Counted from the stretch's first letter, positions 724 through 36,174 are shown. The stretch is DNA of 36,449 nucleotides from Bacteroidota bacterium (GCA_032249525.1 JAVVHK010000001.1:1-36449), one strand, 5' to 3'. Translations and numbers: made by a program. The notes: generated by a model not told the origin, from the sequence alone.

Positions 724-1911
724 TCAGACGAAGGCTGAAATCTTGGTGATGTCTTGACCAGTGATGAGGAGATGGATTTCGTGGGTGCCTTCGTAGGTGA
801 TGACGGATTCTAAGTTCATCATGTGGCGCATGATGGGGTAATCGCCGACGATTCCCATGCCGCCGAGGATTTGGCGGGCGGTGCGAGCAACTTCTAAGGC
901 CATAGCGACATTGTTGCGTTTGGCCATGGAGATTTGGGCGGGGGTGGCTCGGCCTTCATTCATGAGCTGGCCCAGCCGCAGGGCCAAAAGCTGTGCCTTC
1001 GTGATTTCTGTCAGCATCTCGGCGAGTTTCTTCTGGGTAAGCTGAAAGGCCGCAATAGGCTTGCCAAACTGCTTGCGCTCTAAACTATATTGTAAGGCAG
1101 TGCGATAACAGTCTATAGCTGCTCCAATGGCACCCCACGCAATGCCGTAACGTGCGCTATTGAGACAGGAGAGGGGGCCTTTAAGGCCTTGCACACCCGG
1201 TAGGAGGTTCTCTTTCGGCACCCGCACCCGATCCAGCACAATCTCCCCCGTAGCACTGGCCCGTAAAGACCACTTGCGGCGGATCTCCGGCGTAGAAAAA
1301 CCCTCCATCCCCCGCTCCACAATCAGCCCCCGAATCACTCCCTCCGGGTCCTTAGCCCATACAATCGCTATATCCGCAAAAGGCGCATTGGAAATCCACA
1401 TCTTGGAGCCGGTTACCACATAATAATCCCCCTCCTCATAAAAGTGGGTTTCCATGCCGGCGGGATTAGAACCGTGATTAGGCTCCGTCAGGCCAAAGCA
1501 TCCGATGATTTCACCCCGAGCTAAACGCGGAAGGTACTTGCGCCGCTGCTCCTCCGAACCAAACTTCCAAATAGGATACATCACAAGGGAGCCCTGCACA
1601 GAAGCTATAGAACGAATACCAGAGTCACCTGCCTCCAGCTCCTGCATCATCAGACCATACGAAATATAATCCAGCCCCGCCCCCCCATACTCCTCCGGAA
1701 TAAATGGCCCAAAAAGCCCTAACTGAGCCATCTCCGGAATCAGATGCGTAGGACATTCCGCCCGCTGAGCATAATCATCAATAATTGGGACCAGCCGGGT
1801 GCGCACCCATTGCCGAACCGCATCCCGAATAGCCCGCTGCTCCTCGGTCAAAAAGCTCTCTATATCAAAGTAATCCACCTTATCTACCTCCACAGGCGTA
1901 GTGACGCTCAT
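724..1911 (-). CDS. gcdH: Glutaryl-CoA dehydrogenase (acyl-CoA dehydrogenase family)
   Basis: 395 aa. The stretch 'ARYGIAWGAIGAA...FGKPIAAFQLTQKKLAEMLTEITKAQ' follows the GCDH pattern I recall from the human and bacterial enzymes. An ATG lies 4 nt after a -7 box. Confidence 0.85.
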   Translation of the reverse strand: MSVTTPVEVDKVDYFDIESFLTEEQRAIRDAVRQWVRTRLVPIIDDYAQRAECPTHLIPEMAQLGLFGPFIPEEYGGAGLDYISYGLMMQELEAGDSGIRSIASVQGSLVMYPIWKFGSEEQRRKYLPRLARGEIIGCFGLTEPNHGSNPAGMETHFYEEGDYYVVTGSKMWISNAPFADIAIVWAKDPEGVIRGLIVERGMEGFSTPEIRRKWSLRASATGEIVLDRVRVPKENLLPGVQGLKGPLSCLNSARYGIAWGAIGAAIDCYRTALQYSLERKQFGKPIAAFQLTQKKLAEMLTEITKAQLLALRLGQLMNEGRATPAQISMAKRNNVAMALEVARTARQILGGMGIVGDYPIMRHMMNLESVITYEGTHEIHLLITGQDITKISAFV

Positions 1912-1915
1912 AACT

Positions 1916-1923
1916 CAAAGGTA
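1916..1923 (-). promoter_or_regulatory. -7 promoter box TACCTTTG, 4 nt upstream of the gcdH ATG
   Basis: Minus strand reads ttgTACCTTTGagttATG. Confidence 0.65.
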
Positions 1924-1952
1924 CAACAAAATTCGGCATGGGGGATAGTCCC

Positions 1953-3092
1953 TTAGGGGCTGACGGAGGAGGCGAAGGCCTCCTGAGCTTTCTTGATGAG
2001 CAGGTATTCGGCGATATTTTCAGCATCAATGATTCCGAGGAGGATGGGGGTGGAGCCGGTTTTCTCTTCTACTAAGACGAAGGGCACATCCTCGGCCTGT
2101 AAAATGCGCATGACTTCGCTGAGGGGGGTATTTGCATCTACCGCAATGAGATGTTCGTTCATGACTTGCGCGATGGGTGCAGTGAGGGGGATGCCTTCGT
2201 GGAGGGCACTAATCAGCTGCTCCCGGGAAAGGGAGCCCACGGGCCTCCCCTGCGGGTCCGTAATCAGAAAAGAACGTGCCTGCGAACTCAGAAGGGCCTC
2301 TACCGCCGCTTGCAGGGACGCTGTCGCAGGTAGAACTGGATAATGAACCATCACGGCATTCCGGGCAACAATACCCTTGAGCAGGGTTTGTCCCTCTACA
2401 GCTTTCTTCTCGTTTTCTGCGGCTACAAAGACAAAGAAGCCTATCAGGATTAGCACAGGATTGCCAAAAAGACCCAAGAGCGCAAAGAAAACCGCAAAGA
2501 CCTGTCCTACCGTAGCAGCAATAGAGGTAGCCCGCGCATACGGGAAGCGCATCGCTAAAAAAGCTCTGAGTACTCGCCCACCATCCATTGGGAAAGCAGG
2601 TAGGAGGTTGAAGAGAGCTAAATAGGTATTGAGCACGGCAAGCTGGATGAAGTATTCTAAGAGGGTGAGCTCATACTGACTAAAATAGCTTAGGTTCATT
2701 TCCCATGGGGCTCCTCCTAAAAAAAGGCCGGCGGCAATCACCCCGGTGATGAGGAAGTTGACGAGCGGGCCAGCCAGCGCAATAACCAGCTCTTGCGAAG
2801 GACTTTCGGGAAGCTTCTCAATGGATGCTACCCCCCCGAAAGGATACATCGTAATATCCCGAGTCGGTATCCGGAAGGCCGCCGCCGCAAAGGCATGTCC
2901 CAGCTCATGCAGGATGACACTTACCACCAGCCCCCCTATCAAAAGTAACCGCCACCCCACAAAAGTCCAGTTTCCTCCGCTGTACCAAAGGGCTGATAGG
3001 ATAATCCACGCAATAAGAAGCCCAAAACTCCAGTGAATATAAATGGGAATACCCCCTACTACCGCAACGCGGATGGCTCCTTCCTTGCGCAT
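1953..3092 (-). CDS. Site-2 protease family (M50) membrane metalloprotease with a C-terminal CBS pair
   Basis: 'HELGHAF' (HExxH) lies in a TM helix, and 'NLLPAFPMDGGRVL' is the second M50 motif. The protein is polytopic with a C-terminal CBS-like region. Confidence 0.88.
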   Translation of the reverse strand: MRKEGAIRVAVVGGIPIYIHWSFGLLIAWIILSALWYSGGNWTFVGWRLLLIGGLVVSVILHELGHAFAAAAFRIPTRDITMYPFGGVASIEKLPESPSQELVIALAGPLVNFLITGVIAAGLFLGGAPWEMNLSYFSQYELTLLEYFIQLAVLNTYLALFNLLPAFPMDGGRVLRAFLAMRFPYARATSIAATVGQVFAVFFALLGLFGNPVLILIGFFVFVAAENEKKAVEGQTLLKGIVARNAVMVHYPVLPATASLQAAVEALLSSQARSFLITDPQGRPVGSLSREQLISALHEGIPLTAPIAQVMNEHLIAVDANTPLSEVMRILQAEDVPFVLVEEKTGSTPILLGIIDAENIAEYLLIKKAQEAFASSVSP

Positions 3093-3096
3093 CTGA

Positions 3097-3104
3097 CAAA
3101 GGTA
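3097..3104 (-). promoter_or_regulatory. -7 promoter box TACCTTTG, 4 nt upstream of the site-2 protease ATG
   Basis: Minus strand reads aggtTACCTTTGtcagATG. Confidence 0.65.
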
Positions 3105-5028: not shown

Positions 5029-5036
5029 CAAAGTTA
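5029..5036 (-). promoter_or_regulatory. -7 promoter box TAACTTTG, 6 nt upstream of the ATG at 5022
   Basis: Minus strand reads tttaccTAACTTTGgcgcacATG. Confidence 0.6.
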
Positions 5037-9999: not shown

Positions 10000-10007
10000 C
10001 AAAGGTA
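10000..10007 (-). promoter_or_regulatory. -7 promoter box TACCTTTG, 4 nt upstream of the GTG at 9995
   Basis: Minus strand reads ctccTACCTTTGcgccGTGccaaag. Confidence 0.65.
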
Positions 10008-10057: not shown

Positions 10058-10065
10058 TACTTTTG
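10058..10065 (+). promoter_or_regulatory. -7 promoter box TACTTTTG, 5 nt upstream of the icmF ATG
   Basis: Plus strand reads ttttgtatTACTTTTGttagcATG. It is divergent from the box at 10000..10007. Confidence 0.65.
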
Positions 10066-20580: not shown

Positions 20581-20584
20581 CCCC

Positions 20585-21697: not shown

Positions 21698-21700
21698 GGG

Positions 21701-22697: not shown

Positions 22698-22705
22698 TAC
22701 CTTTA
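22698..22705 (+). promoter_or_regulatory. Variant -7 box TACCTTTA, 4 nt upstream of the smpB ATG at 22710
   Basis: Plus strand reads cgccTACCTTTAcctcATG. It has one mismatch to TAnnTTTG and the same spacing as the other boxes. Confidence 0.5.
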
Positions 22706-22709
22706 CCTC

Positions 22710-23168: not shown

Positions 23169-23173
23169 CTTTG
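23166..23173 (+). promoter_or_regulatory. -7 promoter box TAACTTTG, 4 nt upstream of the phhB ATG. It overlaps the smpB stop codon.
   Basis: Plus strand reads gcagacTAACTTTGcctcATG. Confidence 0.6.
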
Positions 23174-23177
23174 CCTC

Positions 23178-23477
23178 ATGCCTACCTACTCACCAGAGGA
23201 AGTACGAGCCCGCCTCGTTTTTTATCCGGAATGGCGCTTAGAAAATAATGCCCTTACCCGCTCCTTTGAGTTTGGCGACTTTTTGGAAGCTTGGGGATTC
23301 CTCACGCAGGTGGCCCTCTTAGCCGAGCGGCACAACCACCATCCCGAAATCTGGAATACCTACAACAAAGTCCGTATCGCCTGGACCACGCACGAAGCCG
23401 GCGGTATCACTGAAAAAGACTTCACCCTGCTGGAAGAAACCGACCGAGCGTATGCGACTTACCGTACGCGTCTATAA
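23178..23477 (+). CDS. phhB: 4a-hydroxytetrahydrobiopterin dehydratase (pterin-4-alpha-carbinolamine dehydratase)
   Basis: 99 aa. '[23 protein letters not shown]' is the PCD signature. Confidence 0.88.
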
Positions 23478-23889
23478 TGCTTCTCCTTATCCGCTTCCTG
23501 CTTATCAGACGGCTGGTGCCTCTGGAGTTGACCTATATGCTAACCTTTCTGCTCCCTATACACTCTGGCCTGGCCAAAGGCTGCTCGTCCCTACTGGACT
23601 CTATATAGAAGTCCCGCCTGGCTGGGAGGCCCAAATCCGCCCCCGCAGTGGCCTCGCCCTGCACCACGGCCTCACTGTCCTCAACTCCCCAGGCACCATT
23701 GACGCCGACTACCGCGGCGAAATCCAAGTCCTCGTCATCAACCTTGGGGATAAACCCTTCACGATAGAACCCGGCATGCGTATCGCCCAAATGGTCTTTT
23801 GCCCCGTCGCTCAAGTCCAATGGGAGCTCGTCTCCCAACTCTCCCCTTCCGACCGCAATGAAGGCGGTTTCGGCCACACCGGCACATGA
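23452..23889 (+). CDS. dut: dUTP diphosphatase
   Basis: 'GASGVDLYA', '[10 protein letters not shown]' and '[15 protein letters not shown]' are dUTPase motifs. It overlaps phhB by 26 nt. Confidence 0.9.
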
Positions 23890-26084
23890 AACAACTCCGG
23901 ATCCTCCTCACCCTCTTCCTCCACCTACTGCGAGGAATCACCCGCTTCTACCCGCTCCAACTTCCTTTTTTCCAGCTGCGTCGGCACCCCTTTCTAATGG
24001 CGATTTGGGGTATTTTCTGGGCTATGGGTTTAGGCTTTATTGGCCGGGGCGTCGGCGTAGAAATGATCTTCCTAAGCCCCGGCGAAGGCTTACCCAATCC
24101 TGCCTGGGGTGCCTTCGCTTGGGGCATCGCCTACGGTATCTTCACCACGGCCTATCACCTCTCCACCTTCCTGCTGGATGCCCACCACGCAGGCTTCCTC
24201 CTGCATAGCCGACGAAACTTTATCTTCCTCTACGCCCTCAATAACAGCCTCCTGCCTCTGGCCTTCCTCCTCTTCTACATTGCCCGTTACAACAAACTCC
24301 ATTTAGACAGCCCCACCCTCCAAACCGAAATCCTCGCCCTGCTTGCAGGCACAGCCCTTGTATGGAGCCTGAGCCTCCTCTACTTTAGCCGGTGGAAACT
24401 CTCTCTGCGCGCCCTCAAATCCCTCATAGGGGCCACTCTCCCCTCTCACAAAACTCAAGAGCCGCCTCTCACTTCGGGCCTATGGCTTCTAAGTGGCGGA
24501 GAAAGGGTCGGATATTACCTAACTATTCCCGAAGGAATCGTCCCCGTGGTTCGTCGCATCCCCCACCAAGCTATCCTCCGCTTTATGGAGGGCATCCTCA
24601 CCCGAGGCCACTTAGCGGCTCTCATCTTAGAGGTCATCTTCATTGGGTTGGTCTTTGTGTGGGGATATATCCAAGCTAAGACGGACCTATATCTGCCAGC
24701 CTCTGTCGTGGTGCTTATTATGGGCGCCATCACCCTGATGATGATGGGCGCCTTGGACTACTGGCTCAAACGAGTCGGCATGGGCTTTCTCGTTTTTCTC
24801 GCCCTGCTCATCCTCCTTGTCTGGAAAATCTTCCACGAAGCCTCACAGGCCAGTCCCGCCTTTGGCCTCTCTTATGAGCAAATCTGGGCTTACCAACCCC
24901 CTACTTGGACCTCCGCCGTTCAGGCCCAGATTGCTTCTGATAGTGCCTCCTTTGCTCAGGTGCTCCAGAAGCGGCTCGCCCGCCAGAATACCCCCAAACC
25001 CGTCTTTATCTGGGTTACGGTGTCGGGTGGCGGTTGGCGCTCTGCTTACTGGACCTTCCTCAACCTTCATCTCTTAGATAGTCTCTCGGGAGGCCGCTTT
25101 TACCAGAGCTTAGCTGGGATTACGGGCGCTTCGGGCGGCCTGATTGGGGCTACCTTCTGGCGAGAACTGCATCTTTTCCACCCCCATCGGGCGCCGAGCC
25201 TATTAGAAGCCGAGCGCCTTACCCAAGACCTGCTCAACCCCCTCTTCTCCACCGGACTCTTAGGCCTATTAAGCCCCAATACCTACTGGGAAGATACCCT
25301 CACCCACATCACTTACCCCAAAGGCCGGGACTACGCCTTTGAGACCCGCCTCCTCCGAAATACCCAGGCCTTCCACCACCACCGCCTCAAAGATTACGCC
25401 CCCTACGAAGAAAGCGGCCAAACCCCTCTTATCATCTTTACGCCGGCCTGCCTCACAAATAGCCTTCAGCTCCTCATTTCCCCCCTCCCGCTCTCTTTTC
25501 TTTGCTGGGCCGACCAAAAACCCATCGCCATAGAACTACGCCAGATCGTTCCTGCCGATAATCTCTGGATTACCTCTGCCCTCCGCATGAATGCCGCCTT
25601 CCCCTTCGTCCTGCCTGCCGTCCGACTCCCTACTAATCCCCCTCTGGATGTTATTGACGCTGGTGCTATTGACAACCTCGGCCAAAGCCTTACCCTCCGA
25701 CTCCTGTGGAAACAACGTTCCCTCTTAGCCTCCACCGCCTCCAAAATCATCTGGATTGAAATTCGCGACCTCCCTCCCCCTCCTACCTCTCCCCATCCCG
25801 CCTCTAAGCTTGTACTAGACAAGATCGGTGGCCTATACGCCGCCTTTGCCGAATCCCGCTACCACTCCATGTCCCTCACCTTGGAAGTCCTGCGAACCCT
25901 CTACCCTATTCCCATAGAGAAATACACCCTCCACTATACCCCCGGGCCAGAAGGGTACACCCCGCCTCTCGGCTTTACCCTCCTACCCCGAGATCGCCAG
26001 AGCCTCCAAAAGGCCGCCTACCAACCATCGCACCTTACCCACCTGCTACACATCCTCCACAATGCCCACCTTACCCAATATTAG
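23886..26084 (+). CDS. Membrane-anchored patatin-like phospholipase: an N-terminal polytopic domain of unknown family plus a C-terminal patatin domain
   Basis: 'VSGGGWRS' (Gly-rich oxyanion loop), 'GASGG' (GxSxG) and 'IDAGAIDN' (catalytic Asp) occur in the canonical order. There are about 6-8 hydrophobic helices in the first ~330 aa. The start forms an ATGA overlap with the dut stop. Confidence 0.8.
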
Positions 26085-26095
26085 GCCCAAAAACC

Positions 26096-26103
26096 TACCT
26101 TTG
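26096..26103 (+). promoter_or_regulatory. -7 promoter box TACCTTTG, 5 nt upstream of the ATG at 26109
   Basis: Plus strand reads aaaccTACCTTTGcgctaATG. Confidence 0.65.
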
Positions 26104-26108
26104 CGCTA

Positions 26109-26414
26109 ATGAAATCCCGATCACACCTCACCCTCGGGGGAATAGCCTTCACTCTATGCGGGATGATCATAAGCTGTACCCATCATTCCCACTCCTCTCC
26201 GCCCCAACAAACCCCCTCCACCATGAGCACCGCCGGAGAAGGTCTCTCCATCCCCCCTTCCTCGCTGGCAGTCCCCTACTGCCCAGAATGCGAAATGAAG
26301 TTTCCCCCGCACAAAATCATGGACACCTTGACTTATGATGGAAAACTATATGGTTTTTGTAGCCCAGAGTGCAAAGCTTCTTTTGCGAAACGTATGGGTT
26401 TGGATAATCAGTAG
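26109..26414 (+). CDS. Small lipoprotein with a C-terminal YHS/TRASH-like Cys motif
   Basis: It has a lipobox-type signal ('GMIISC'). 'CPECEMKF...YDGKLYGFCSPECKASF' resembles the YHS/TRASH metal-binding fold. Confidence 0.7.
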   Translation: MKSRSHLTLGGIAFTLCGMIISCTHHSHSSPPQQTPSTMSTAGEGLSIPPSSLAVPYCPECEMKFPPHKIMDTLTYDGKLYGFCSPECKASFAKRMGLDNQ

Positions 26415-27267
26415 TGGGGGCTTGATCCTGAGCGCCTGCAGCTCAGAACCTCAGTCCCAAACGAAGGGCTATGAGCCAGATACCACCTATGTGGTGCCGT
26501 GGGAGGAGATTGAGAAATATATGCGCGCGGCACCTTCGCCTGCGCAGGTGTCATTATGGCTGCGGCAAGAAAAGGTACCCTTTTATCGGGAAATCTTGCA
26601 TGACCCGACTTTGGCCTCTCGGTACCGCAGCCTGAAAGGCGCCGCCAACTTAGGCATCTACCTTACGGATATGGCGTATGCCCACGCCACCAATAACTAC
26701 CAGGTCGCTTACGAGTACCTCACCAGCGCCAATCGCTTAGCCCAGCTTTATGGCCTGAGTGATCTTCTTTCTGTGGAGCGTATTCGGGAACTGGACCGCC
26801 TCCAAGATAAACCCGATAGCCTCCAAAGGCTCTTCTCTACCTACTACGCCGAAATCCAAGAACGCTTGGAATCCACCGGCCAACAAGCCCTCCTCCGACA
26901 CATGATCTTAGGCGGCTGGGTAGAAAGCGTCCACCTGAGCCTCCACCTCCAAGAAAAATCCCCCTCCAAACAAGGCCTCACCGACCTCATTCGCCTCCAA
27001 AAAAGCCTCGTCCCCCTCATGAAAAAAATGTACGCCATCGACACCGCCAGAAACTCGGAATCCCAGATTATCTTCGCCCATCTCACCAACATTGAAACAG
27101 TCTTGCGCAAAATACCCGAATCCCCTAACAGGGGGGCAGCCTCTACAGACCCCGAAAAAGGCCTCATCCGATTAGAATTCCAAAAAGACTTGCCTCTCCC
27201 CCCCGATCTGATCAGAGAGCTCCGCGAAAAAGTCTCTCCACTTCGGCAATACCTCATCAGCATATGA
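26383..27267 (+). CDS. Lipoprotein of unknown function, predicted mostly helical
   Basis: The long ORF has a lipobox 'GLILSAC'. The start is ambiguous: TTG at 26383 gives MRNVWVWIISSGGLILSAC, but the ATGs at 26350 and 26335 are also possible. Every option overlaps the upstream gene by 32-80 nt. I recognise no family. Confidence 0.65.
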   Translation: MRNVWVWIISSGGLILSACSSEPQSQTKGYEPDTTYVVPWEEIEKYMRAAPSPAQVSLWLRQEKVPFYREILHDPTLASRYRSLKGAANLGIYLTDMAYAHATNNYQVAYEYLTSANRLAQLYGLSDLLSVERIRELDRLQDKPDSLQRLFSTYYAEIQERLESTGQQALLRHMILGGWVESVHLSLHLQEKSPSKQGLTDLIRLQKSLVPLMKKMYAIDTARNSESQIIFAHLTNIETVLRKIPESPNRGAASTDPEKGLIRLEFQKDLPLPPDLIRELREKVSPLRQYLISI

Positions 27268-27698
27268 TTCGCTTACTGATTATTCTCTTTCTCCTGATCG
27301 GCTTCCGCATCTCTTATGCGCAAGCCTCTTGCGCCAAGCTCGTTCCCCTTTGCAAAAACAGCTTCCTGGAAGACTACAACTGGGACGGACGCTATTGGCG
27401 GGCAGAACTCTACGGCAACGAAACCACCGAAGTGTACTACACATTCTTCAAGGGTTTGCGCTATCGCCTCATCCCCTGCGGCAGCTCCGACGAAAAAAGC
27501 CCCCTCCGTATGCGCCTCTACAACGCCAATCGCGCCCTACTCTTAGATACAGGTACTCAAAATGCCCGCCCTTATTGGGACTTAGAACTCAGTAGCACCC
27601 AGCTCCTCATTATTGAACTTTACTACCCTTCGGGCAGTGGCTGTGCCGCCCTCATCATCGGCCATAAAGCTAGCGAAGCCTTAGCATCCCAAGAGTAA
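27264..27698 (+). CDS. Secreted 144-aa protein of unknown function with four Cys
   Basis: It has the signal peptide MIRLLIILFLLIGFRISYAQA and an ATGA overlap with the upstream stop. I recognise no family. Confidence 0.65.
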   Translation: MIRLLIILFLLIGFRISYAQASCAKLVPLCKNSFLEDYNWDGRYWRAELYGNETTEVYYTFFKGLRYRLIPCGSSDEKSPLRMRLYNANRALLLDTGTQNARPYWDLELSSTQLLIIELYYPSGSGCAALIIGHKASEALASQE

Positions 27699-27700
27699 AC

Positions 27701-27708
27701 TACCTTTG
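27701..27708 (+). promoter_or_regulatory. -7 promoter box TACCTTTG, 4 nt upstream of the GTG at 27713
   Basis: Plus strand reads taaacTACCTTTGccagGTG. Confidence 0.65.
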
Positions 27709-27712
27709 CCAG

Positions 27713-29260
27713 GTGATTGTCTGGTGGATACTCGTACCCCTCCTCGGGGCGATCCTCATCGGAATCTCTGGGGGCTTTCGGCAAAGGTCCCTTCTAACAT
27801 GGGGATGGAGAATCACCGCCCTCATCCAACTGGCTGTAGCTATCTGGCTCGGGTCTCTTTACCTACAAAAGGCCCCCTTAGAGGTAACCTACCATCTCTT
27901 CACCCTTTCTTGGAAGCTGCCCTGGTGGGGTTACCCTTCCCCAGAAGGGTGGGTCGCCCGCTATGACGTAAGCCTCTTCTTTGCTACCGATGGCTTTGCC
28001 TTCCTCTTGGGTCTTATCCTAACGCTCGTCGGAGTTGTCCTTAGCTGGTGGCCCCAATGGAATTTCTCTCAGCCAGCCCTCCAAATCCCTGCCCTCCTCC
28101 TCGTGCAAGCCTTTGCCCTCTGGGCCCTCTTCTCGTATGACCTGATTAGCTTCTACATCGGGTTTGAGGCTACCCTCATCCCCATGGCCTATCTCCTCTT
28201 CTCCCTCATACCCGACCGAGAAAAAGCCCGAAATACGGGCCTTTCGTTTTTGCTATACACCTTAGCTGGGTCTATCCCGTTTTTGACCAGCATCTTGTAT
28301 GGCGCTGCCCAGATTAGTGCTACTTATGGCGTCCCCTACTCCACCAGCTATATGACCTGGCTCAAATATCCCCTGCCCCCAGAAACACAGGTCTGGGTCT
28401 ATCTGGGTTTTGTGCTGGCATTTTATTTCAAGTTGGGGCTATTTCCTGCGCACGGCTGGGTGCTGGCTATATACCGGAATGCCCCTCTACCCTTAGTAGT
28501 AGTCTCGTCAGCTATCTTGACGAAGCTGGGAGCGGTGGGGTGGCTGCGGTGGAGTCCTGCTTTTCCTCATGGGCACCTTGTGCTGGCTCCTTACTTTGGA
28601 GGGCTAGCGGCGATTAGCCTTCTTTTGGCTGGACTAGCCGCCTACTTCCAGAAGCACCTGCGGCTCTGGCTGGCGTATGGGACGATTTCGCACTTAGGAT
28701 TTATTCCTATTGGCATAGCGGCGGTGTCGGGGGCTGGGTTTAGTGGGGCGGCCTGGTATGCGGTGGGCCATGCCGCCGTCGCCACTGCCCACATTCTGAT
28801 TGTGAGCTACCTCATAGAGACGATCGGTACGGATGATCTCAGCACCTTCGGAGGGATTGCCCGAGACAATCCCCGTCTGGCATTTTTCTGGGCTTTGACG
28901 GCCTTAGCCAGCATTGGCCTTCCCGGTCTTAGTCAGTTCCCTGCGGAGTTTCTGGTGCTTTTAGGGAGCTACCAGAGCCCCATGGTACAGCGGGGGGTTT
29001 TCCTAACGGCCCTGCTCGGCATAGCCGTAGGAGCCATCTACACCCTGCGCGTGTTACGACAGGGACTCTTTGGCGAGCCTAAAAACCTCCCACCCAGAGA
29101 CCTGAGCCTCCCCGAAAGTATCGCTATAGCCCTGATGGGTATCTGGATCATCCTTACCGGATTCTGGGCCTCCCCTTTCCTCAAGGAAATAGAACGTACC
29201 CTCATCCCCCTTGCCCAAGCTATCCTTTACCAGGCGCTGGGCCCCGCCAGTACCCTCTAA
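27713..29260 (+). CDS. Orphan NuoM/NuoL/MrpD-like proton-conducting antiporter subunit (Proton_antipo_M family)
   Basis: 515 aa and polytopic. 'YIGFEATLIPMAY', 'AFYFKLGLFPAHGW', 'AILTKLG', 'ISHLGFI' and 'GLPGLSQFPAEFLVLLG' align with the conserved NuoM TM5, TM7, TM8 and TM12 motifs as I recall them. No other complex I or Mrp gene is present in the window. Confidence 0.8.
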   Translation: MIVWWILVPLLGAILIGISGGFRQRSLLTWGWRITALIQLAVAIWLGSLYLQKAPLEVTYHLFTLSWKLPWWGYPSPEGWVARYDVSLFFATDGFAFLLGLILTLVGVVLSWWPQWNFSQPALQIPALLLVQAFALWALFSYDLISFYIGFEATLIPMAYLLFSLIPDREKARNTGLSFLLYTLAGSIPFLTSILYGAAQISATYGVPYSTSYMTWLKYPLPPETQVWVYLGFVLAFYFKLGLFPAHGWVLAIYRNAPLPLVVVSSAILTKLGAVGWLRWSPAFPHGHLVLAPYFGGLAAISLLLAGLAAYFQKHLRLWLAYGTISHLGFIPIGIAAVSGAGFSGAAWYAVGHAAVATAHILIVSYLIETIGTDDLSTFGGIARDNPRLAFFWALTALASIGLPGLSQFPAEFLVLLGSYQSPMVQRGVFLTALLGIAVGAIYTLRVLRQGLFGEPKNLPPRDLSLPESIAIALMGIWIILTGFWASPFLKEIERTLIPLAQAILYQALGPASTL

Positions 29261-29299
29261 GAAAACCCCCCTCTCCGCCTCAAAGCCGGGGAACGAACA

Positions 29300-29364
29300 G
29301 GGTCTCCATAAGGAGCCGTGAAGGGGAAATTTATGAAGGTGGCTCAATGCCTGAGCGTAAAGAG
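29300..29364. repeat. Copy A of a tandem ~65-nt intergenic repeat
   Basis: gggtctccataaggagccgtgaaggggaaatttatgaaggtggctcaatgcctgagcgtaaagag. It aligns with copy B at roughly three-quarters identity by eye. Confidence 0.7.
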
Positions 29365-29396
29365 CCCCTCCTCCACCTTGAAACCGGGGGATAAGA

Positions 29397-29464
29397 GGGA
29401 GTCCATATCAAGGGCCGTAAAGGGAAGTTTTATGGAGGGCGGCTCCATGCCTAATCATAAAGAG
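29397..29464. repeat. Copy B of a tandem ~65-nt intergenic repeat
   Basis: gggagtccatatcaagggccgtaaagggaagttttatggagggcggctccatgcctaatcataaagag. It begins 97 nt after copy A. Confidence 0.7.
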
Positions 29465-29515
29465 AGGGGGCCTGGAGGAAGGTTTGGCGGGAGGACGAAA
29501 CGAAGGAGCCGGCTT

Positions 29516-30976
29516 TTAGCTGAGAGGTACGCGGAAGGTTTTTTCTTGGAGGGTGAGGCGCCCTAAGGTTTCGGCTAAGCGGCTGAAGGTCGGCTCCAAG
29601 GTATGAACGGCTTCGGCTTCGGAAAGGGTGGTCAGGCGGCGAAGCTCTTCTAAGAGGCCCGGGGCGCTGGTGTCTAAGGCCCAGAGGGTAGGCAGGACTT
29701 CGGTCAAATGGGCTTTACGCAGGATTTCCCAGCCATCCAGCAGGTGTCGGTGTCGCGTCCCCTCCCAGATATTGGTAATGAGCAGTTCGCGCAAAAAGCG
29801 CTCTATGGGAAACTCCGCCAGGATGCCGAGGCCACCCCAGATCTCAATGGCCCAGTGGGCGGCTTTGAGCGCTACCTCGGCTGTCCAGTACTTAGCTAAG
29901 TGAGAGAGCAGCCGAAAGATGGCATACCGTTGCGAATAGGGCGGCTTTTCCAGCCAAGTGGTTTCTAACCACTGCTCGGCCAGCCATGCCAAAGCCCCCG
30001 CCACCCGAAGCTGCTCATAGTGGTGCGCTAACTCCTTTTGAAAGAGGGGCTGCTCCGCTAAAGGTCGCCCAAAGAGATACCGATTCTGAGCAAACTCATA
30101 CGCTTTTCGGAGGGCGTGTAGTCCATGAGCCACCACCCCTACTGCATTCGCAATGCGAGAGAAGTTGAGCACCTCCAAGATGTAGTAGATGCCTTGGGCA
30201 GCATCGCCAATGAGGTAGGCTTCGGCATCGTGCAGTTCTACTTCGCCGGTGGGGACGCTACGGGTGCCGATTTTATCTTTGAGGCGGCGAATGAGGTAGT
30301 TTCGGGTGCCATTTTCTCGTTCGCGCGGCACTAAAAAGAGGGCCAAGCCCTTGGGACCCATGGGGGCTTTTTCGGGACGAGCAGCGACGACCGCTAACTC
30401 CGCTCCGACATTGCTGCTGAAGTACTTTTCTCCCGTGAGGTACCAGCGGCCTTCTCTAAGGTAAGCTCGGGTATGCACGTGGCTGCCCAGGTCGGAGCCG
30501 CTCCCTATTTCAGTCATCCAGGTGGCCCCTTGCCAAAAAGGCGGCTCCCTCCGCCCCAGCTGCTCTAAAAAATATTCCCGCATGGGCCCCTCAAAATACT
30601 TATACAGCGGCACCCAGGTAGAAAGCGTTACAGTGTAAGGACAATACAGCCCAGGGTCATAATAGCTTGCTACAAAACCCAACTGATAGCTTAGCCTCAG
30701 GTCATGCCGATGAGCCACCTCGTAAATCACCCCCGCCGCATACCCCGCCGAAAGCAAATACGAATACGCCGGGGGATACAAAATCTCATCCACGCGCTCG
30801 CCTCGCTCATTAAACTGCCTAAGATGCGGAGTCCCCCCCCGGTCTATTTCCAGAGATATGGGCCATCCTTCGCTTTCCCACCAGTTTTGATAGGCTAATA
30901 GGCGCTCGGAAATAGGAAAGCCCATCTCTTCCCGAAGGAAAGCCACGGGCCCTCCACAGAGAATATCTATGCGCAT
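29516..30976 (-). CDS. Acyl-CoA dehydrogenase family protein (AidB-like long form)
   Basis: 486 aa. It has the ACAD middle and C-terminal pattern ('TEIGSGSDLG', 'KYFSSN', 'IWEGT'). The N-terminal 'ERVDEILYPPAYSYLL' resembles the AidB-type N-domain. Confidence 0.8.
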   Translation of the reverse strand: MRIDILCGGPVAFLREEMGFPISERLLAYQNWWESEGWPISLEIDRGGTPHLRQFNERGERVDEILYPPAYSYLLSAGYAAGVIYEVAHRHDLRLSYQLGFVASYYDPGLYCPYTVTLSTWVPLYKYFEGPMREYFLEQLGRREPPFWQGATWMTEIGSGSDLGSHVHTRAYLREGRWYLTGEKYFSSNVGAELAVVAARPEKAPMGPKGLALFLVPRERENGTRNYLIRRLKDKIGTRSVPTGEVELHDAEAYLIGDAAQGIYYILEVLNFSRIANAVGVVAHGLHALRKAYEFAQNRYLFGRPLAEQPLFQKELAHHYEQLRVAGALAWLAEQWLETTWLEKPPYSQRYAIFRLLSHLAKYWTAEVALKAAHWAIEIWGGLGILAEFPIERFLRELLITNIWEGTRHRHLLDGWEILRKAHLTEVLPTLWALDTSAPGLLEELRRLTTLSEAEAVHTLEPTFSRLAETLGRLTLQEKTFRVPLS

Positions 30977-30980
30977 AGCT

Positions 30981-30988
30981 CAAATTTA
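30981..30988 (-). promoter_or_regulatory. -7 promoter box TAAATTTG, 4 nt upstream of the ATG at 30976
   Basis: Minus strand reads tttttgccTAAATTTGagctATG. Confidence 0.6.
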
Positions 30989-31026
30989 GGCAAAAACTCC
31001 CAACCGACTCTACATAGTCTTGAGTT

Positions 31027-34000
31027 TTACCGGAGCTTTTCGGCCACCCCGCAGAGAAGCCGGTACACCGAAGTCCGTTTAGCCTGACCATCCGTAAGCT
31101 CTACATACACCACATAAACCCCGGTCGGAAGCCGATAGCCATTGGCATCCGTGCCATCCCAGCGAAAGCGATTTTCCCCCACCTCTAATAACGTACCCTC
31201 CGTCAGGTACCGTATCAGATGCCCGTTGGGAAAGTAGACAGCAATCCGGGCTTTTTGGTCTGGTTTGTCGTTGAGAATGTAGATGGTTGTCCAGTCCTCG
31301 TACCCGTCGTTATCGGGAGAAAAAGTCTGGGGCTCCAGCCAAATACCTTTTCGCTCGCTGGGAGGATATTCTCGCTGGGAGTTAGCGTAGCCGGGGGTCC
31401 CATACCCTACGGTGCTGGCCGCTGAATACCAGTTGAGGGGGTCCGCCGAAGGCCCCTCCACCCGCAGCCGCTCCAACGCCACCCCGCGCCGCGTGCGTAA
31501 GTCTGGAAAGTGATAGCTCTTATCATACGGAACTCGGTCTATAATCACGCTATCCCGCAGCCGCACTAGCCACACCACATCCCGATCATAGTCATACGCT
31601 GGCATGGTAGAAATCTGATGAAAGCGGGCACCAGCGGGCGGAGCATAACGACGTTGGACATCCGCTGTATCCGACGAGAGGCAGACATAACTTCGGGGTG
31701 GGAAAAGTACAGGCTCCTTAGCTAGGATGGTAAGACGTTGCAAGGTATCCCCCCGAGCTAGCCCTAAATGCGATAGGTCAAATAACTTATCTGTGCGATT
31801 ATACAGCTCTACATAGCGGGCCCCACCCGTCTGCGGATACGGTAAAATCTCATTCACCACGATATCGCCTACCTCTGGCACCGACGGCACCCAGAAACTC
31901 CCCACAAGCGGCTCCACAGGCATCCCCTGGCAATCGTGAAGGCCTGTCAGCTGAATCCTATAAAAGCGACTTTCCTCCAGAGGCTGCATGAGAAAGATTT
32001 CCACACTTCGGCCTCCGTCTAAGGGGGTATAAGCTAAGGGCACTACCTCTGGCTCAAAAGCATAGACGCTGGGACGGCTCAAAAGCGTCTCAGGAAGGGC
32101 CTCGCTAAACCGAATGAGAATAGAAAAGGGGGCCTGATAAGTGATGCCCAGGATGCGGGGTCTCAAGTCAGCTTGGGGATCATACACGCTATTGGGGCGG
32201 CCGGGGGTACCCCCAGTGGGGTCCTCCGAAGCCCGCCATCCCAAACTGTCCGCACATACGGCGTCGGGATTGATTCTCTCCAAGCTCCAGCCGCCATCGT
32301 CTTTGCGGGTGTCGCGATACCAGCTTCTCTTATAGGCTACGGAGTCTATGCGCTGCCCCTGCTCATCATAAAGCCCAATTTCCCCACTGGTATTTGGAAT
32401 AGCGGGAAAGCCCTGAAGTCCCACCGCCGAGGCCCGATCATAGTAGGCAATAGCCCCCTCCACACTGGTTAGCACCAGAAACTCCCCGGGCCATAGGCCT
32501 ACGCGAGGTAGAGTCGCTCGGCTGGAACCCACCCGCAAGGTCCACCCCGACAGGTCTATGTATCGGGGAGAACGGTTATAAATCTCCACATACTCAAAAG
32601 AGGGAAGTCCCACGGGCGGGTCGGGATCGGGAAAGATTTCATTGATGACGATATCGTGGGCTTGGGGGGGAGCTGGCACAGCGAAACTCCGCGTAAAAGT
32701 CTGGGTATTGCCCTGGCAGTCGGCAGCGGTTACGGTGAGGGTATAAACTTCGGTGTTTTGGAGGGGGCTACTGAGGGTCAGGGCGATTTCGGAGGGGCTG
32801 GGGAAGTCCACGGCGGTTATGCTAAGGCCGCCCGAAAGCTGATACTGGCTGGGGCTTCGCATAAAAAGGGTATCTACGGGCTCGGAAAAGTACAGATAGA
32901 GGGTTTGGGGCGGGCTGGGCGAAACGAAAAGAAGCCGGGGAGCACTGGTATCTACCCATCGGCCTAAGACACTATTCGGACGGCCGGGCGTACCGCCCAT
33001 AGGGTCTTCCGAAGCCGTCCAATTAGAGTCCGCCGCACACAGGTCGTCTAAGTTCATCCGCTCTAAGCTCCAGCCGCCGTTCTTCTTAGTAGAGGAGCGG
33101 TACCACGTGTCGCTATAAGCGACTTTATCTAAGATAAGGTCAGTTGAGCTGAGGAGGGTGAGGCTATCGCCACTGTTATTGAGGCTGGGCCAAGAGGAAA
33201 GGCCAACCAACTCCGGATAGCTACTCAGGGCGGCCGCCGGCCCTAAAAGAAGATAACTCTGGGGGGGCAGAAGTCGATCAGGCAACGTTACGCACTGCGT
33301 CGCATCACAAAAGCGCCACCCCCCCACCGAAAACCACTTAGAGGAGCGGTTGTAGATTTCCACATACTCGTAGGGGGGAAGGGCCACGGGTGGATCGGGA
33401 TCGGCCATGATTTCGCTAAACACCACCTCTCCAGCCACCGGCTCTTCGGGCCATACAAAAAGCAAACTATCCAAGGCGACATTCCCTGCAAGGTCTGCTA
33501 TCCCCTCCACCCGAAGCTGGTACAGCATAGAGCGCTGCAAACCGCTCCCCAGCTGAAGAAGCACCTGATTAGGAGCCGACAGCGTAACACCGGTAATAGG
33601 CACAGGCCCCGGTGTGATCCCATAATGAAGCGGATTTTGGGCTGAGGTAGCTTCTATCGGCTCGTTGAAACTAACTGCTATCTGCTGGTCGGTTATTACT
33701 TCTACCTCGGTGAGCCGAGGGGGAACTGTATCTACGATAGGCGGCCCAATGTAAAAGTCGTCAAAGTAGAGATTTTGGCGATTGGTGGAGGTGTGCTGGA
33801 AGTACACGCCAAAGTAGGCGGTGGTGGAGAAGGTGAGGTCGGTAGCGGTGAATTCGGGTTCCCAGGTGCCATTTCCGAGGGTGTCGGAAAAGACTTCCCA
33901 GAGGCCGGTGGCGCTGCGCAGGACTTTGATGCGGAGGATGTTGTTGGATCCACCGAAGCGGCCGCTTCTCCCGCCGGCCAGACGAATGTGGGTAGAGCCG

Positions 34001-34383
34001 TTTTGGAGCCAGAGTTCTAAGCTGTCGGCGCTTCCGGTGATGCCGCCCAGCTTGAGGTAATAGCCTTGGAGGTTGGGGTCTGTGAGGTCGGCCCGATCCG
34101 CTACGAGGTACACCCGAGCAAAGTTTTGGGTGGAAGGGTTGAAGGCCACGCGCACCCAAAAGCGCCATTCCGTGTCATCTATGAGGGTATTGGAGGTAGA
34201 AAGGTACAGAGTAGCAGTGGAGCTGGGGCCATTAGCGCGTAAGCGCTTATCGGACGTAATCACCCAGTAAAGGTCAGTCCCGCTCCAAGGGGGATTATTC
34301 GTAAAGTCCCCATCCGAAAAGTCGTCTTGGAGTTGAGCCCAGCTGAGCATAACGAGGAGCCCTAAGTACCGCCCCCCACGCAT
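31027..34383 (-). CDS. Large secreted surface protein: an N-terminal jelly-roll-like domain, three units of Ig-like plus lamin-tail domain, and a T9SS type-B-like C-terminal domain
   Basis: Three LTD cores are present: 'VVFSEIMADPDPPVALPPYEYVEIYNRS', 'IVINEIFPDPDPPVGLPSFEYVEIYNRS' and 'IVVNEILPYPQTGGARYVELYNRT'. LTD1 and LTD2 each end in a 'SEDP.GGTPGRPNSV' motif, while LTD3 ends in a more divergent 'GYGTPGYANS'. The C-terminal 'FSPDNDGYEDW...RFRWDGTDANGYRLPTGVYVVYVEL' resembles the gliding-motility C-terminal sorting domain. Confidence 0.8.
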   Translation of the reverse strand: MRGGRYLGLLVMLSWAQLQDDFSDGDFTNNPPWSGTDLYWVITSDKRLRANGPSSTATLYLSTSNTLIDDTEWRFWVRVAFNPSTQNFARVYLVADRADLTDPNLQGYYLKLGGITGSADSLELWLQNGSTHIRLAGGRSGRFGGSNNILRIKVLRSATGLWEVFSDTLGNGTWEPEFTATDLTFSTTAYFGVYFQHTSTNRQNLYFDDFYIGPPIVDTVPPRLTEVEVITDQQIAVSFNEPIEATSAQNPLHYGITPGPVPITGVTLSAPNQVLLQLGSGLQRSMLYQLRVEGIADLAGNVALDSLLFVWPEEPVAGEVVFSEIMADPDPPVALPPYEYVEIYNRSSKWFSVGGWRFCDATQCVTLPDRLLPPQSYLLLGPAAALSSYPELVGLSSWPSLNNSGDSLTLLSSTDLILDKVAYSDTWYRSSTKKNGGWSLERMNLDDLCAADSNWTASEDPMGGTPGRPNSVLGRWVDTSAPRLLFVSPSPPQTLYLYFSEPVDTLFMRSPSQYQLSGGLSITAVDFPSPSEIALTLSSPLQNTEVYTLTVTAADCQGNTQTFTRSFAVPAPPQAHDIVINEIFPDPDPPVGLPSFEYVEIYNRSPRYIDLSGWTLRVGSSRATLPRVGLWPGEFLVLTSVEGAIAYYDRASAVGLQGFPAIPNTSGEIGLYDEQGQRIDSVAYKRSWYRDTRKDDGGWSLERINPDAVCADSLGWRASEDPTGGTPGRPNSVYDPQADLRPRILGITYQAPFSILIRFSEALPETLLSRPSVYAFEPEVVPLAYTPLDGGRSVEIFLMQPLEESRFYRIQLTGLHDCQGMPVEPLVGSFWVPSVPEVGDIVVNEILPYPQTGGARYVELYNRTDKLFDLSHLGLARGDTLQRLTILAKEPVLFPPRSYVCLSSDTADVQRRYAPPAGARFHQISTMPAYDYDRDVVWLVRLRDSVIIDRVPYDKSYHFPDLRTRRGVALERLRVEGPSADPLNWYSAASTVGYGTPGYANSQREYPPSERKGIWLEPQTFSPDNDGYEDWTTIYILNDKPDQKARIAVYFPNGHLIRYLTEGTLLEVGENRFRWDGTDANGYRLPTGVYVVYVELTDGQAKRTSVYRLLCGVAEKLR

Positions 34384-34387
34384 AAAG

Positions 34388-34395
34388 CAAGGTTA
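34388..34395 (-). promoter_or_regulatory. Variant -7 box TAACCTTG, 4 nt upstream of the ATG at 34383
   Basis: Minus strand reads ttttcgTAACCTTGctttATG. It has one mismatch and canonical spacing. Confidence 0.45.
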
Positions 34396-34438
34396 CGAAA
34401 AATTTCAGGGTGGCGCATTTTCGTTGGAGGTGGGGTCG

Positions 34439-34446
34439 TACCTTTG
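34439..34446 (+). promoter_or_regulatory. -7 promoter box TACCTTTG, 4 nt upstream of the panD GTG at 34451
   Basis: Plus strand reads gggtcgTACCTTTGtaatGTG. Confidence 0.65.
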
Positions 34447-34450
34447 TAAT

Positions 34451-34795
34451 GTGCTGATAGCGGTGCTAAAGTCCAAGATTCACCGGGTGCGGATTACGCA
34501 AGTGGATTTAGACTATGTTGGGAGTCTAACGCTGGACAGGGACCTGATGGATGCGGCGGGGCTTTTGCCATATGAGCAGGTACATGTGCTGAATGTCAAT
34601 ACGGGTGCGCGCATAGAGACCTATTTGATTGAGGGGCCTCGGGGGAGTGGCATTGTTGGGCTCAATGGTCCTGCGGCTCGCACGGGCATGGTGGGGGATT
34701 GGGTGATTATTTTATCGTATGCTTGGCTTACGCCTGAAGAAGCGCGTACACATCAGCCAGTGGTGATTTTTCCCCGAGAGGGGAATCGGTTGTGA
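34451..34795 (+). CDS. panD: Aspartate 1-decarboxylase (pyruvoyl-dependent)
   Basis: '(M)LIAVLKSKIHRVRITQVDLDYVGSLTLD' contains the Gly-Ser self-processing site. I moved the start from 34424 to the GTG at 34451 because the box lies inside the ORF-track extension, and the new N-terminus matches the usual Bacteroidetes PanD start. Confidence 0.9.
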   Translation: MLIAVLKSKIHRVRITQVDLDYVGSLTLDRDLMDAAGLLPYEQVHVLNVNTGARIETYLIEGPRGSGIVGLNGPAARTGMVGDWVIILSYAWLTPEEARTHQPVVIFPREGNRL

Positions 34796-35754
34796 GGCTT
34801 CGGCGCTGGATTGAATTGGGGGTAGGGTTAGGTTTAGGGGGTGGGCTGCTGTATTGGGTGCTGCGGGACTATCCTTGGCGGGCTCTGGCGGAGCTGAGCT
34901 GGCAGTGGGAAGCTGTCGGAGGCGCCGCCATCGTCATGGGGTTAGCTCATGTATGGCGGGCCTGGCGCTGGAAGCTTTTTCTTAGAGCGAGCGGGCATGA
35001 AAATATTTCTATTTGGGAGGCCTTTATGGCCCTGATGGTCGGCTACTTAGTGAACTTGGGTCTGCCCCGAGCCGGTGAGATAGTGCGGTGTAGCCTCTTA
35101 TATCGGGTTCGCCAGCTACCCGTAGAACTGAGCTTAGGCACGGTCATTGGAGAACGGATGTTGGATTTGCTCCTTTTGGGGGTGTGGGGTGCGGTGGTAG
35201 TGGGGGTTGAGGGTTCGGAATGGCTGCGGAGACTGGGTCTGTGGAGCTGGGCTCCTTTCTTGGTGGGGGGGGCCTTTGTAGGCATGAGTCTTTTATGGGG
35301 CCTGTACCGGTATCGGCAGCGCCTCCCCTGGCCATGGGCTCAACGGATAGTAAGGGGCGTAGCCTCGGCCTTCCAGGTACGCCCTCGCACCGCTAATCTC
35401 CTTCTCTCCATTGGCATCTGGCTTAGCTACTGGATAGCGACCTGGCTGGCCGGCCTTGCCGTCCAAGAGAATTTTTCCCTCTGGGCAGCCTGGGTGCTTC
35501 TCGTAGGTTCCGGCTTAGCTATGGCCATCCCAGTCCCCGGCGGCTTAGGAACCTTTCACGCCATCGGCCTCGTCTTGCTAAACTACTTAGGCTATGCCGA
35601 CACACCCGCTAAAACCCTCGTACTGCTCATCCATGCCTTCCAGACTTTACATACCCTCTTACTGGGAGTGGGGGGAATAAGCTATTTTCTTCTACGGATG
35701 CGCCAAATACCTATGGCCCCTCCCCATTTAGCAAAGCCTCAAACCCGAGTTTAG
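34792..35754 (+). CDS. UPF0104 / lysylphosphatidylglycerol-synthase-TM-region family membrane protein (flippase-like)
   Basis: 320 aa with about 8 TM helices. The 'WRAWRWKLFL' motif follows TM2 as in the LPG_synthase_TM family. It has a GTGA overlap with the panD stop. Confidence 0.75.
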   Translation: MRLRRWIELGVGLGLGGGLLYWVLRDYPWRALAELSWQWEAVGGAAIVMGLAHVWRAWRWKLFLRASGHENISIWEAFMALMVGYLVNLGLPRAGEIVRCSLLYRVRQLPVELSLGTVIGERMLDLLLLGVWGAVVVGVEGSEWLRRLGLWSWAPFLVGGAFVGMSLLWGLYRYRQRLPWPWAQRIVRGVASAFQVRPRTANLLLSIGIWLSYWIATWLAGLAVQENFSLWAAWVLLVGSGLAMAIPVPGGLGTFHAIGLVLLNYLGYADTPAKTLVLLIHAFQTLHTLLLGVGGISYFLLRMRQIPMAPPHLAKPQTRV

Positions 35755-35788
35755 CATAAAAACAAAACCTCTTCGCCCGGGCAATCAC

Positions 35789-36160
35789 CTAATCGGTTCG
35801 CTTTTTGCGCTGCCACTCCCGTAGCCACTTCTCAAAGGCCCGCTGACCACTTTCCGTCGTGAAAAGCTCCTTGAGCTCCTCAGCTAAAACATGCGAATTA
35901 TACACCCGATCCGCCCCCTTCCGAATCACCTCTAAACGAGTACTCTCATGGTCTAAGAGCCATAGCAAGTCCTTCAGCTGAGCCGCGGAAAGGCAGTTCT
36001 GCGCAACGATCTCATTGATTCTTTCCAGGCGGCTGGCTTCCATACTGAGGGAGGCTACCTCCAATCGGAGGTAGTTAAACTGCACATCTGAGAGGGTAGC
36101 TACCCGACAATTCTGTGCCCAGAGAGCCCCCAGGAGGGCCAAGCTACTTAGCCAGCGCAC
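35789..36160 (-). CDS. Exported DUF4476-like protein
   Basis: It has the signal peptide (M)RWLSSLALLGALWAQ. Two helical half-repeats ('SRLERINEIVAQNCLSAAQLKDLL', 'TRLEVIRKGADRVYNSHVLAEEL') resemble DUF4476 as I recall it. The family label is tentative. Confidence 0.6.
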   Translation of the reverse strand: MRWLSSLALLGALWAQNCRVATLSDVQFNYLRLEVASLSMEASRLERINEIVAQNCLSAAQLKDLLWLLDHESTRLEVIRKGADRVYNSHVLAEELKELFTTESGQRAFEKWLREWQRKKRTD

Positions 36161-36166
36161 CTTCTA

Positions 36167-36174
36167 CAAAGAAA
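36167..36174 (-). promoter_or_regulatory. Possible variant -7 box TTTCTTTG, 6 nt upstream of the GTG at 36160
   Basis: Minus strand reads ttttgTTTCTTTGtagaagGTG. It has one mismatch, at the A of TA. Confidence 0.35.

Follow-up and report, generated by a model that had tools for sequence, protein, structure and literature searches.

A Bacteroidota promoter box 4-7 nt before start codons suggests leaderless mRNAs in a clade of uncultured Bacteroidia

Where does translation begin on an mRNA that may carry no leader at all? Bacteroidota translate without Shine-Dalgarno (SD) pairing, and how their ribosomes choose a start codon is an open question. The locus considered here, a 36,449-nt stretch of Bacteroidota DNA (contig JAVVHK010000001.1; "the window" below means this whole stretch), raises the question in a particular form: every gene that is not coupled to an upstream gene has the sequence TAnnTTTG, or a one-mismatch version of it, a few nucleotides before its start codon. 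We consider it likely that these boxes belong to sigma-A promoters whose +1 would be the start codon itself or a base 1-3 nt upstream of it. The mRNAs would then be leaderless, and ribosomes would reach the downstream genes by stop-start coupling. We infer both the position of the transcription start and translation from the 5' end from the sequence.

Such an arrangement would depart from what is known of the phylum. In Flavobacterium johnsoniae, leaders of 10 nt or less make up 13% of predicted transcripts (PMC6847099), with a mean 5' untranslated region (UTR) of 33 nt. In Bacteroides thetaiotaomicron 3.7% of 5' UTRs are shorter than 10 nt, and in F. psychrophilum 5.5% of transcripts are leaderless; the median 5' UTRs of these other two mapped Bacteroidota are 32 and 24 nt. 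Since the three maps contain only 3.7-13% short or missing leaders, comparative surveys treat the phylum as using A-rich leader signals. GeneMarkS-2 places 90% of Bacteroidetes/Chlorobi species in its group B of non-SD ribosome-binding sites (PMC6028130), StartLink handles the FCB group as using A/T-rich ribosome-binding sites, and a 2011 survey, in which only Pribnow-type boxes were detectable, reported leaderless genes in 1 of 37 Bacteroidetes/Chlorobi genomes, at 2.4% (PMC3160421).

The window has a G+C content of 55% and is densely filled with ordinary housekeeping and metabolic genes. Among these are acyl-CoA dehydrogenases, an M50 peptidase, an OmpA-family protein, a UDP-glucose dehydrogenase operon, a fused B12-dependent mutase, a glycosyltransferase-methyltransferase-AsnB operon, RNase G, rpsT, smpB, dUTPase, panD and a large secreted protein that carries a C-terminal type IX secretion domain; no sigma gene lies within the window. 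RNase G homologues put the host among uncultured 'Bacteroidia bacterium' genomes, at identities of 98, ~80, 71, 62, ~50 and 42%, and the RNase G of ordinary Bacteroidota is ~38% identical to that of the window. From these Bacteroidia-named homologues, the type IX secretion C-terminal domains and an F. johnsoniae-like ribosomal protein bS22, we infer that the host belongs to the phylum Bacteroidota. Its clade may come from hot springs, to judge by the sample identifiers.

Boxes before the start codons of the window

Both strands of the window together hold 24 exact TAnnTTTG sites, compared with 13.9 from shuffles. Fourteen of them adjoin the start of a real gene, with an ATG or GTG 4-7 nt downstream, and the other 10 occur at or below the level of chance. 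One-mismatch boxes add three genes, those of smpB (TACCTTTA), the LTD protein (TAACCTTG) and the DUF4476 protein (TTTCTTTG). All 17 uncoupled starts are thereby box-led at a gap of 4-7 nt (14 exact, 3 one-mismatch), the gap being the distance from the final G of the box to the first base of the ATG or GTG. It measures 4 nt in 10 cases (8 exact, 2 one-mismatch), 5 nt in 3, 6 nt in 3 (2 exact, 1 one-mismatch) and 7 nt in 1, and the spacer is mostly C-rich. An earlier note on this DNA had reported the same 17 boxes at the same positions, and its gap counts were reproduced exactly. Its wording that most of the exact boxes read TACCTTTG has to be softened to half (7/14). The start codons are ATG in 13 genes and GTG in 4. 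The boxes, together with a doubtful eighteenth, are the following.

1916-1923, minus strand: TACCTTTG box, gap 4, ATG 1911, acyl-CoA dehydrogenase; ScpB coupled 3 nt downstream
3097-3104, minus strand: TACCTTTG box, gap 4, ATG 3092, M50 peptidase with CBS domain
5029-5036, minus strand: TAACTTTG box, gap 6, ATG 5022, OmpA-family protein, N-terminus signal-peptide-like by eye
10000-10007, minus strand: TACCTTTG box, gap 4, GTG 9995, UDP-glucose/GDP-mannose dehydrogenase, leading a four-gene coupled operon to 5127
10058-10065, plus strand: TACTTTTG box, gap 5, ATG 10071, fused B12-binding/MeaB/methylmalonyl-CoA mutase-type protein, divergent from the 9995 gene
17041-17048, minus strand: TACTTTTG box, gap 5, ATG 17035, family 2 glycosyltransferase, leading the glycosyltransferase-methyltransferase-AsnB coupled operon
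18761-18768, minus strand: TACCTTTG box, gap 7, ATG 18753, 31-amino-acid (aa) bS22 gene (18753-18660); RNase G (TTG 18651) 8 nt on
18783-18790, plus strand: TATCTTTG box, gap 6, ATG 18797, rpsT (ribosomal protein S20)
20573-20580, plus strand: TATATTTG box, gap 4, ATG 20585, PQQ/BamB-like beta-propeller protein
22698-22705, plus strand: TACCTTTA box with one mismatch, gap 4, ATG 22710, smpB
23166-23173, plus strand: TAACTTTG box, gap 4, ATG 23178, pterin-4a-carbinolamine dehydratase, leading an operon with dUTPase and a 732-aa protein
26096-26103, plus strand: TACCTTTG box, gap 5, ATG 26109, YHS-domain protein
27701-27708, plus strand: TACCTTTG box, gap 4, GTG 27713, Proton_antipo_M family membrane protein
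30981-30988, minus strand: TAAATTTG box, gap 4, ATG 30976, AidB-like acyl-CoA dehydrogenase
34388-34395, minus strand: TAACCTTG box with one mismatch, gap 4, ATG 34383, 1118-aa LTD/Big_5 protein with type IX secretion C-terminal domain
34439-34446, plus strand: TACCTTTG box, gap 4, GTG 34451, panD; an LPG-synthase-like gene overlaps the panD end by 4 nt
36167-36174, minus strand: TTTCTTTG box with one mismatch, gap 6, GTG 36160, DUF4476 protein
21736-21743, plus strand: CACCTTTA with two mismatches, 5 nt before ATG 21749, asparaginase gene, possible decayed promoter

At the rate of boxes found away from starts in the window, 0.009 boxes would be expected in the 68 positions concerned, compared with the 14 exact ones seen (Poisson P ~4e-40). 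A pattern of this kind might nevertheless be ascribed to chance, base composition or a circular choice of start codons, and 5 of the 17 starts were indeed preferred over those of longer open reading frames (ORFs) partly through the box. The box-adjacent codon is, however, the first possible ORF start in 12 of the 17 genes, so these starts were not picked by the box, and the same peak recurs in independent relatives but is missing from 1.43 Mb of control DNA, as described below. We give an explanation by chance or circularity practically no weight.

The box also bears on where the proteins begin. The earlier note had held that it identifies better N-termini than the longest-ORF rule for five genes, and Pfam profiles agree for three of them: when the box-adjacent start is used, residue 1 of PanD aligns with profile position 1, residue 5 of SmpB with position 2 and residue 7 of the UDP-glucose dehydrogenase with position 2. 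By eye, the dehydrogenase N-terminus obtained in this way has a GxGxxG motif, and those of the OmpA-like protein, the fourth of the five, and of the LTD protein look like signal peptides. The fifth gene, rpsT, does not discriminate between starts, its alternative lying just 3 codons upstream. The leaderless reading requires translation of the box-led genes to begin at this box-adjacent position. On identical contigs (L001 and L007), the pipeline calls disagree with the box-predicted starts at 5022, 34383 and 34451, giving lengths of 608 rather than 633 aa for the OmpA-like protein, 1107 rather than 1118 for the LTD protein and 121 rather than 114 for panD. In genomes of this clade the box beats the longest-ORF rule or generic gene callers at start prediction, and it could be used for annotation repair.

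The 14 coupled genes present a different picture. None has a box within 36 nt of its start, even when one mismatch is allowed, and their spacers to the upstream gene range from -80 to +8 nt. Overlaps measure 4 nt in four cases and 8, 26 and 80 nt once each (the 80-nt one being doubtful); the remaining genes begin 1-3 nt after the upstream stop in six cases and 8 nt after it in one. No consistent SD-like motif was seen by eye before the internal genes, just one GAGGGG standing at an SD-like distance. This geometry is the one expected for termination-reinitiation.

Promoter element or translation signal

In the mapped promoters of F. johnsoniae, the -7 element occupies -12 to -5 and has the consensus TAHHTTTG, transcription starts 4-5 nt beyond it, and A/T-rich sequence near -18 and -28 takes the place of a clear -33 element (PMC6847099). 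The box-to-start peak of 4-5 nt equals this published spacing between box and transcription start. If the boxes of the window likewise mark the -7 element (-12 to -5) of promoters read by the housekeeping sigma-A of Bacteroidota, transcription would start 4-5 nt past their final G. At gaps of 4-5 nt, +1 would then be the A or G of the start codon itself, and at gaps of 6-7 nt it would fall 1-3 nt upstream. Each unit's first gene would thus be carried on a leaderless or near-leaderless mRNA, on which ribosomes would begin at the 5'-terminal AUG or GUG. The downstream genes, which have neither box nor SD sequence, would most likely be translated through termination-reinitiation coupling.

To look for promoter features, 47 start-adjacent boxes pooled from the window and relatives were set against 86 boxes that lie elsewhere in this DNA; the free positions and the A/T content had played no part in finding the boxes. 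G stands at the two free positions in 1 of the 47 start-adjacent boxes and in 36 of the 86 others, and its near-absence reproduces the consensus of the mapped F. johnsoniae promoters. Upstream of the start-adjacent boxes, A+T reaches 65-74% at -28 to -26 and 51-68% at -20 to -15, compared with ~40-58% at the non-start boxes, a pattern also visible in the 17 window sites alone. A clear -33 TTTG was not seen upstream of the boxes, nor is one evident in F. johnsoniae. Sigma-70-type promoters showed no enrichment (6 found, 8.8 expected). The start codons next to the 47 boxes are ATG (36), GTG (10) and TTG (1), and ATG and GTG both open with a purine, taken to be the preferred initiating nucleotide. 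Leaderless transcripts in bacteria such as Mycobacterium reportedly also begin with AUG or GUG (Shell et al. 2015).

The motif could instead act in RNA, UACCUUUG being a non-SD element that recruits ribosomes or aids reinitiation on leadered or polycistronic transcripts made from other promoters. Bacteroidota are known for non-SD signals near the start codon (PMC6028130), and of the 11 box-led genes that follow a co-directional neighbor, 7 do so at a spacing of just 9-41 nt, without a terminator between, and these are probably present on read-through transcripts. Yet none of the 14 internal genes, where a ribosome-binding signal would be expected too, has the motif, and the motif matches the DNA-level sigma-A box in full, down to the rule against G and the A/T tracts, which would have no role in RNA. 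Inspection showed no complementarity to the anti-SD sequence, and a pairing of UACCUUUG with the 3' tail of the 16S rRNA was likewise rejected by inspection, the motif resembling the rRNA sense strand and not its complement.

Boxes also precede tRNA genes, which are not translated and before which a translation signal would be unexpected. In the relatives, a box stands 7 nt from the predicted 5' end of a tRNA-Gly, 8 nt from that of a tRNA-Leu and 29 nt from that of a tRNA-Lys.

L097, 1428-1443, minus strand: box and predicted tRNA 5' end
L110, 1930-1967, plus strand: box and predicted tRNA 5' end
L110, 2073-2089, plus strand: box and predicted tRNA 5' end

Judged by the spacing, some tRNAs of the relatives would have a 5' leader of only 2-4 nt. 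The window itself contains no tRNA genes and no Rfam families, and hence no riboswitch-type leader that could serve as an internal control. It does contain three divergent gene pairs, whose start codons are 75 bp (9995/10071), 43 bp (18753/18797) and 67 bp (34383/34451) apart with no further box between them. Such spacing, in the absence of any other box, leaves no obvious space for a separate promoter plus leader, and other promoter candidates are lacking there. Taken together, the free positions, A/T tracts, coupled genes, tRNAs, orthologues, divergent pairs and spacing favor the promoter reading and the (near-)leaderless mRNAs proposed in the earlier note, and a role of the motif at the level of RNA appears very unlikely.

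Relatives, read-through and known systems

DNA of relatives was taken as regions around the genes for RNase G or the BamB-like protein, at RNase G identities falling from 98 to 42%. Close relatives were gathered through exact-protein look-ups and one metagenome scan, in which 13 of 80 loci fell in the clade and the remaining loci (<=42% identity) were left out. The control set consisted of 81 loci (1.43 Mb) of ordinary Bacteroidota, supplied by an RNase G alignment to a genome collection; the matches listed there were all distant, at <=40% identity.

The position of the box relative to start codons, which the earlier note had proposed to examine in relatives, separated the two groups clearly. 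In 234 kb of clade DNA there are 136 TAHHTTTG boxes, of which 63 (46%) lie 3-8 nt from a start and 22 at 9-60 nt; short gaps thus make up ~74% of the box-to-start pairs (63 short, 22 long). In the control DNA only 58 of 1164 boxes (5%) lie 3-8 nt from a start and 384 lie at 9-60 nt (Fisher P ~1e-35 for the short-gap fraction). Among the short gaps of the clade, 4 nt occurs 30 times, 5 nt 16 times and 6 nt 12 times, the distribution that the rule of 4-5 nt from box to transcription start predicts if transcription begins at the start codon. The spread of control gaps over 9-60 nt agrees with the published 5' UTRs, which indicates that the scan recovers known behavior and serves as a positive control.

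The short-gap trait is present at RNase G identities of 54% (L180), 52% (L095), 49% (L181), 47% (L182) and 42% (L098). A second relative at 49% (L097) has too few boxes to judge, and in L099, which at 39% is an ordinary relative, the gaps measure 18-47 nt. Individual boxes are conserved as well: the rpsT box and its 6-nt gap are kept in 9 of 9 lineages aligned while the flanks diverge, the BamB-like gene has a gap of 4 in every orthologue examined, and the bS22 box has a gap of 4-8 throughout, with one mismatch in L095. The trait is therefore that of a clade of uncultured Bacteroidia and extends beyond this window. The claim that every operon-leading gene has the box stands for the window (17/17); clade-wide, "most" is the fitting word, since about two-thirds of such genes in the relatives have it.

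Several points weigh against reading the boxes as the source of leaderless mRNAs. By hand count, a short-gap box is missing from about one-third of those genes in relatives that have no tight coupling, and a few genes have a box 14-31 nt upstream and would hence be leadered. Gaps of 6-8 nt mean a leader of 1-4 nt rather than none. The predicted transcription starts are placed by spacing rules set in other Bacteroidota, the host sigma factor and the 16S 3' end lie outside the DNA sampled, and the sample amounts to ~270 kb around a few loci rather than whole genomes. The close packing of co-directional genes belongs here too: with such small spacers and no enrichment of terminators, read-through transcripts must exist, and on them the seven box-led genes noted above would be internal.

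This last point is also what favors a mixed arrangement, in which the boxes would be real but mostly weak or conditional internal promoters, protein would come mainly from read-through polycistronic mRNAs, and the leaderless route would be minor. Besides the tiny co-directional spacers, it draws on terminator-like hairpins, which in a scan of 17000-36449 showed no enrichment (19 found, 22.1 expected), and on the convergent mutase and asnB genes, which end just 7 nt apart (13457 and 13465). However, the six box-led genes of the three divergent pairs have no upstream co-directional gene and carry the same box at the same spacing, and the conservation of box and spacing over deep divergence points to selection for a precise box-to-start distance. 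We regard the mixed arrangement as unlikely, though less so than an RNA-level motif. Leaderless mRNA is probably the default across this deep-branching clade (RNase G identity down to ~42%), with operon-internal genes served only by stop-start coupling.

Compared with the sigma-A(Bfr) promoters of Bacteroidota (-33 TTTG / -7 TAnnTTTG; B. fragilis, B. thetaiotaomicron, F. johnsoniae and F. psychrophilum), the boxes of the window have the same -7 consensus without G at the free positions and similar A/T-rich tracts about one and two helical turns upstream. They differ in their distance from the start codon, which is tens of nucleotides in those organisms and 4-7 nt in 17 of 17 units of the window.

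A box confined to first genes and kept at a fixed, short distance from their starts is otherwise known from the leaderless-dominant Actinobacteria (Mycobacterium, Streptomyces) and Deinococcus-Thermus, GeneMarkS-2 group C (PMC6028130). In those lineages it is a Pribnow-type -10 box (TANNNT) 6-8 nt from the start, whereas here it is the Bacteroidota -7 element TAnnTTTG. Their internal genes are modelled as likely users of ribosome-binding sites, whereas those of the window have no SD and start on or next to the upstream stop, and 25-50% of their transcripts are predicted to be leaderless, a lower share than in the window. In archaea (Haloferax, Sulfolobus/Saccharolobus; group D), leaderless first genes are likewise in the majority, accounting for 60-80% of operons in many (PMC6028130), but there the TATA/BRE promoter lies ~26 nt upstream and RNA polymerase and initiation factors are of a different, archaeal kind. 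What we describe thus appears to be a known leaderless strategy run with a Bacteroidota-specific promoter, in a clade where it is apparently the default.

In the literature searched, only the three transcription-start studies join the term leaderless with this box. No prior description of a pervasive leaderless organization with this promoter was found there, as the earlier note had supposed. The clade would show that the unusual promoter of the phylum can couple directly to the start codon, and it makes a natural comparison for work on initiation by Bacteroidota ribosomes. If the reading is right, the phylum, which initiates independently of SD pairing, would have here its first leaderless-dominant lineage.

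Individual loci and the ends of the window

The 31-aa ORF MPCGRKRKLKKIKRHKLKKRRRLNRHKKKIR (18660-18753, minus strand) was identified as ribosomal protein bS22 by a PDB sequence search, with matches in the solved ribosome structures 8fmw_V (E 1.6e-7) and 7jil_5 of F. johnsoniae (E 3.5e-4). Pfam and NCBIfam gave no match to it, and the gene callers of the fetched contigs missed it. The ORF is kept, with synonymous changes, in every clade relative examined. RNase G follows 8-17 nt downstream and starts with TTG in 6 of 7 lineages and with ATG in L098.

The boxes of bS22/RNase G and rpsT (18761-18790) stand back to back, 14 bp apart, and the upstream region of each promoter crosses the box of the other into the other gene. 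Two polymerases could probably not sit on both promoters together, which would link the expression of the two ribosomal protein genes. Another case of extreme promoter packing occurs at the smpB/dehydratase junction, where the TAACTTTG box at 23166-23173 opens with the TAA stop codon of smpB and the next gene begins 9 nt after the end of smpB.

The asparaginase gene (start at 21701 or 21749) may be an eighteenth unit with a decayed box. In relatives (L103, L108, L110, L093 and L094), an exact TACCTTTG or TACTTTTG lies 5 nt before the conserved start MAQSPIAIAIHGG. In the window, a further in-frame ATG, located 3 nt past the upstream stop, adds 16 hydrophobic residues (21697-21751), and in two relatives this extension contains LLAC, which resembles a lipobox. 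The gene thus has either a decayed promoter or alternative N-termini.

The largest non-coding stretch of the window is a 255-bp segment between convergent genes (29261-29515). It contains two loosely similar units of ~70 nt (TCCATA..GCCGT(G/A)AAGGG..TTTATG.AGG..GGCTC..ATGCCT..) but neither a promoter box nor an Rfam match nor a TRF tandem repeat. DNA matches to it came only from strains at least 97% identical, together with a weak partial match in L101 (~82% over 87 nt), whose BamB-like gene is 98% identical to that of the window. An 82-aa ORF that overlaps the stretch (29318-29566) is probably not a gene.

Positions 1-82 of the window consist of G/C homopolymer runs and are probably assembly-end junk. 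Near both ends (83-145 and 36389-36449) are diverged copies of a GC-rich repeat, ~78-81% identical over 52-64 nt. At the corresponding junctions, other assemblies have a perfect hairpin core, GGCCGCCGCCCGCC-(TGCG/TTCG)-GGCGGGCGGCGGCC, and all of them break or fork there. L001 (JGI contig Ga0209778_100319, 38795 bp) joins window position 83 to 36446 through 2.3 kb with three genes (L001 11208-13512), and its own ends overlap by ~126 bp, forming an apparent circle of 38.7 kb. The assembly L007 runs from 36446 into different genes, so a 38.7-kb replicon that carries rpsT and smpB is a less likely explanation of the circle than either a strain rearrangement or an assembly artefact induced by the repeat.

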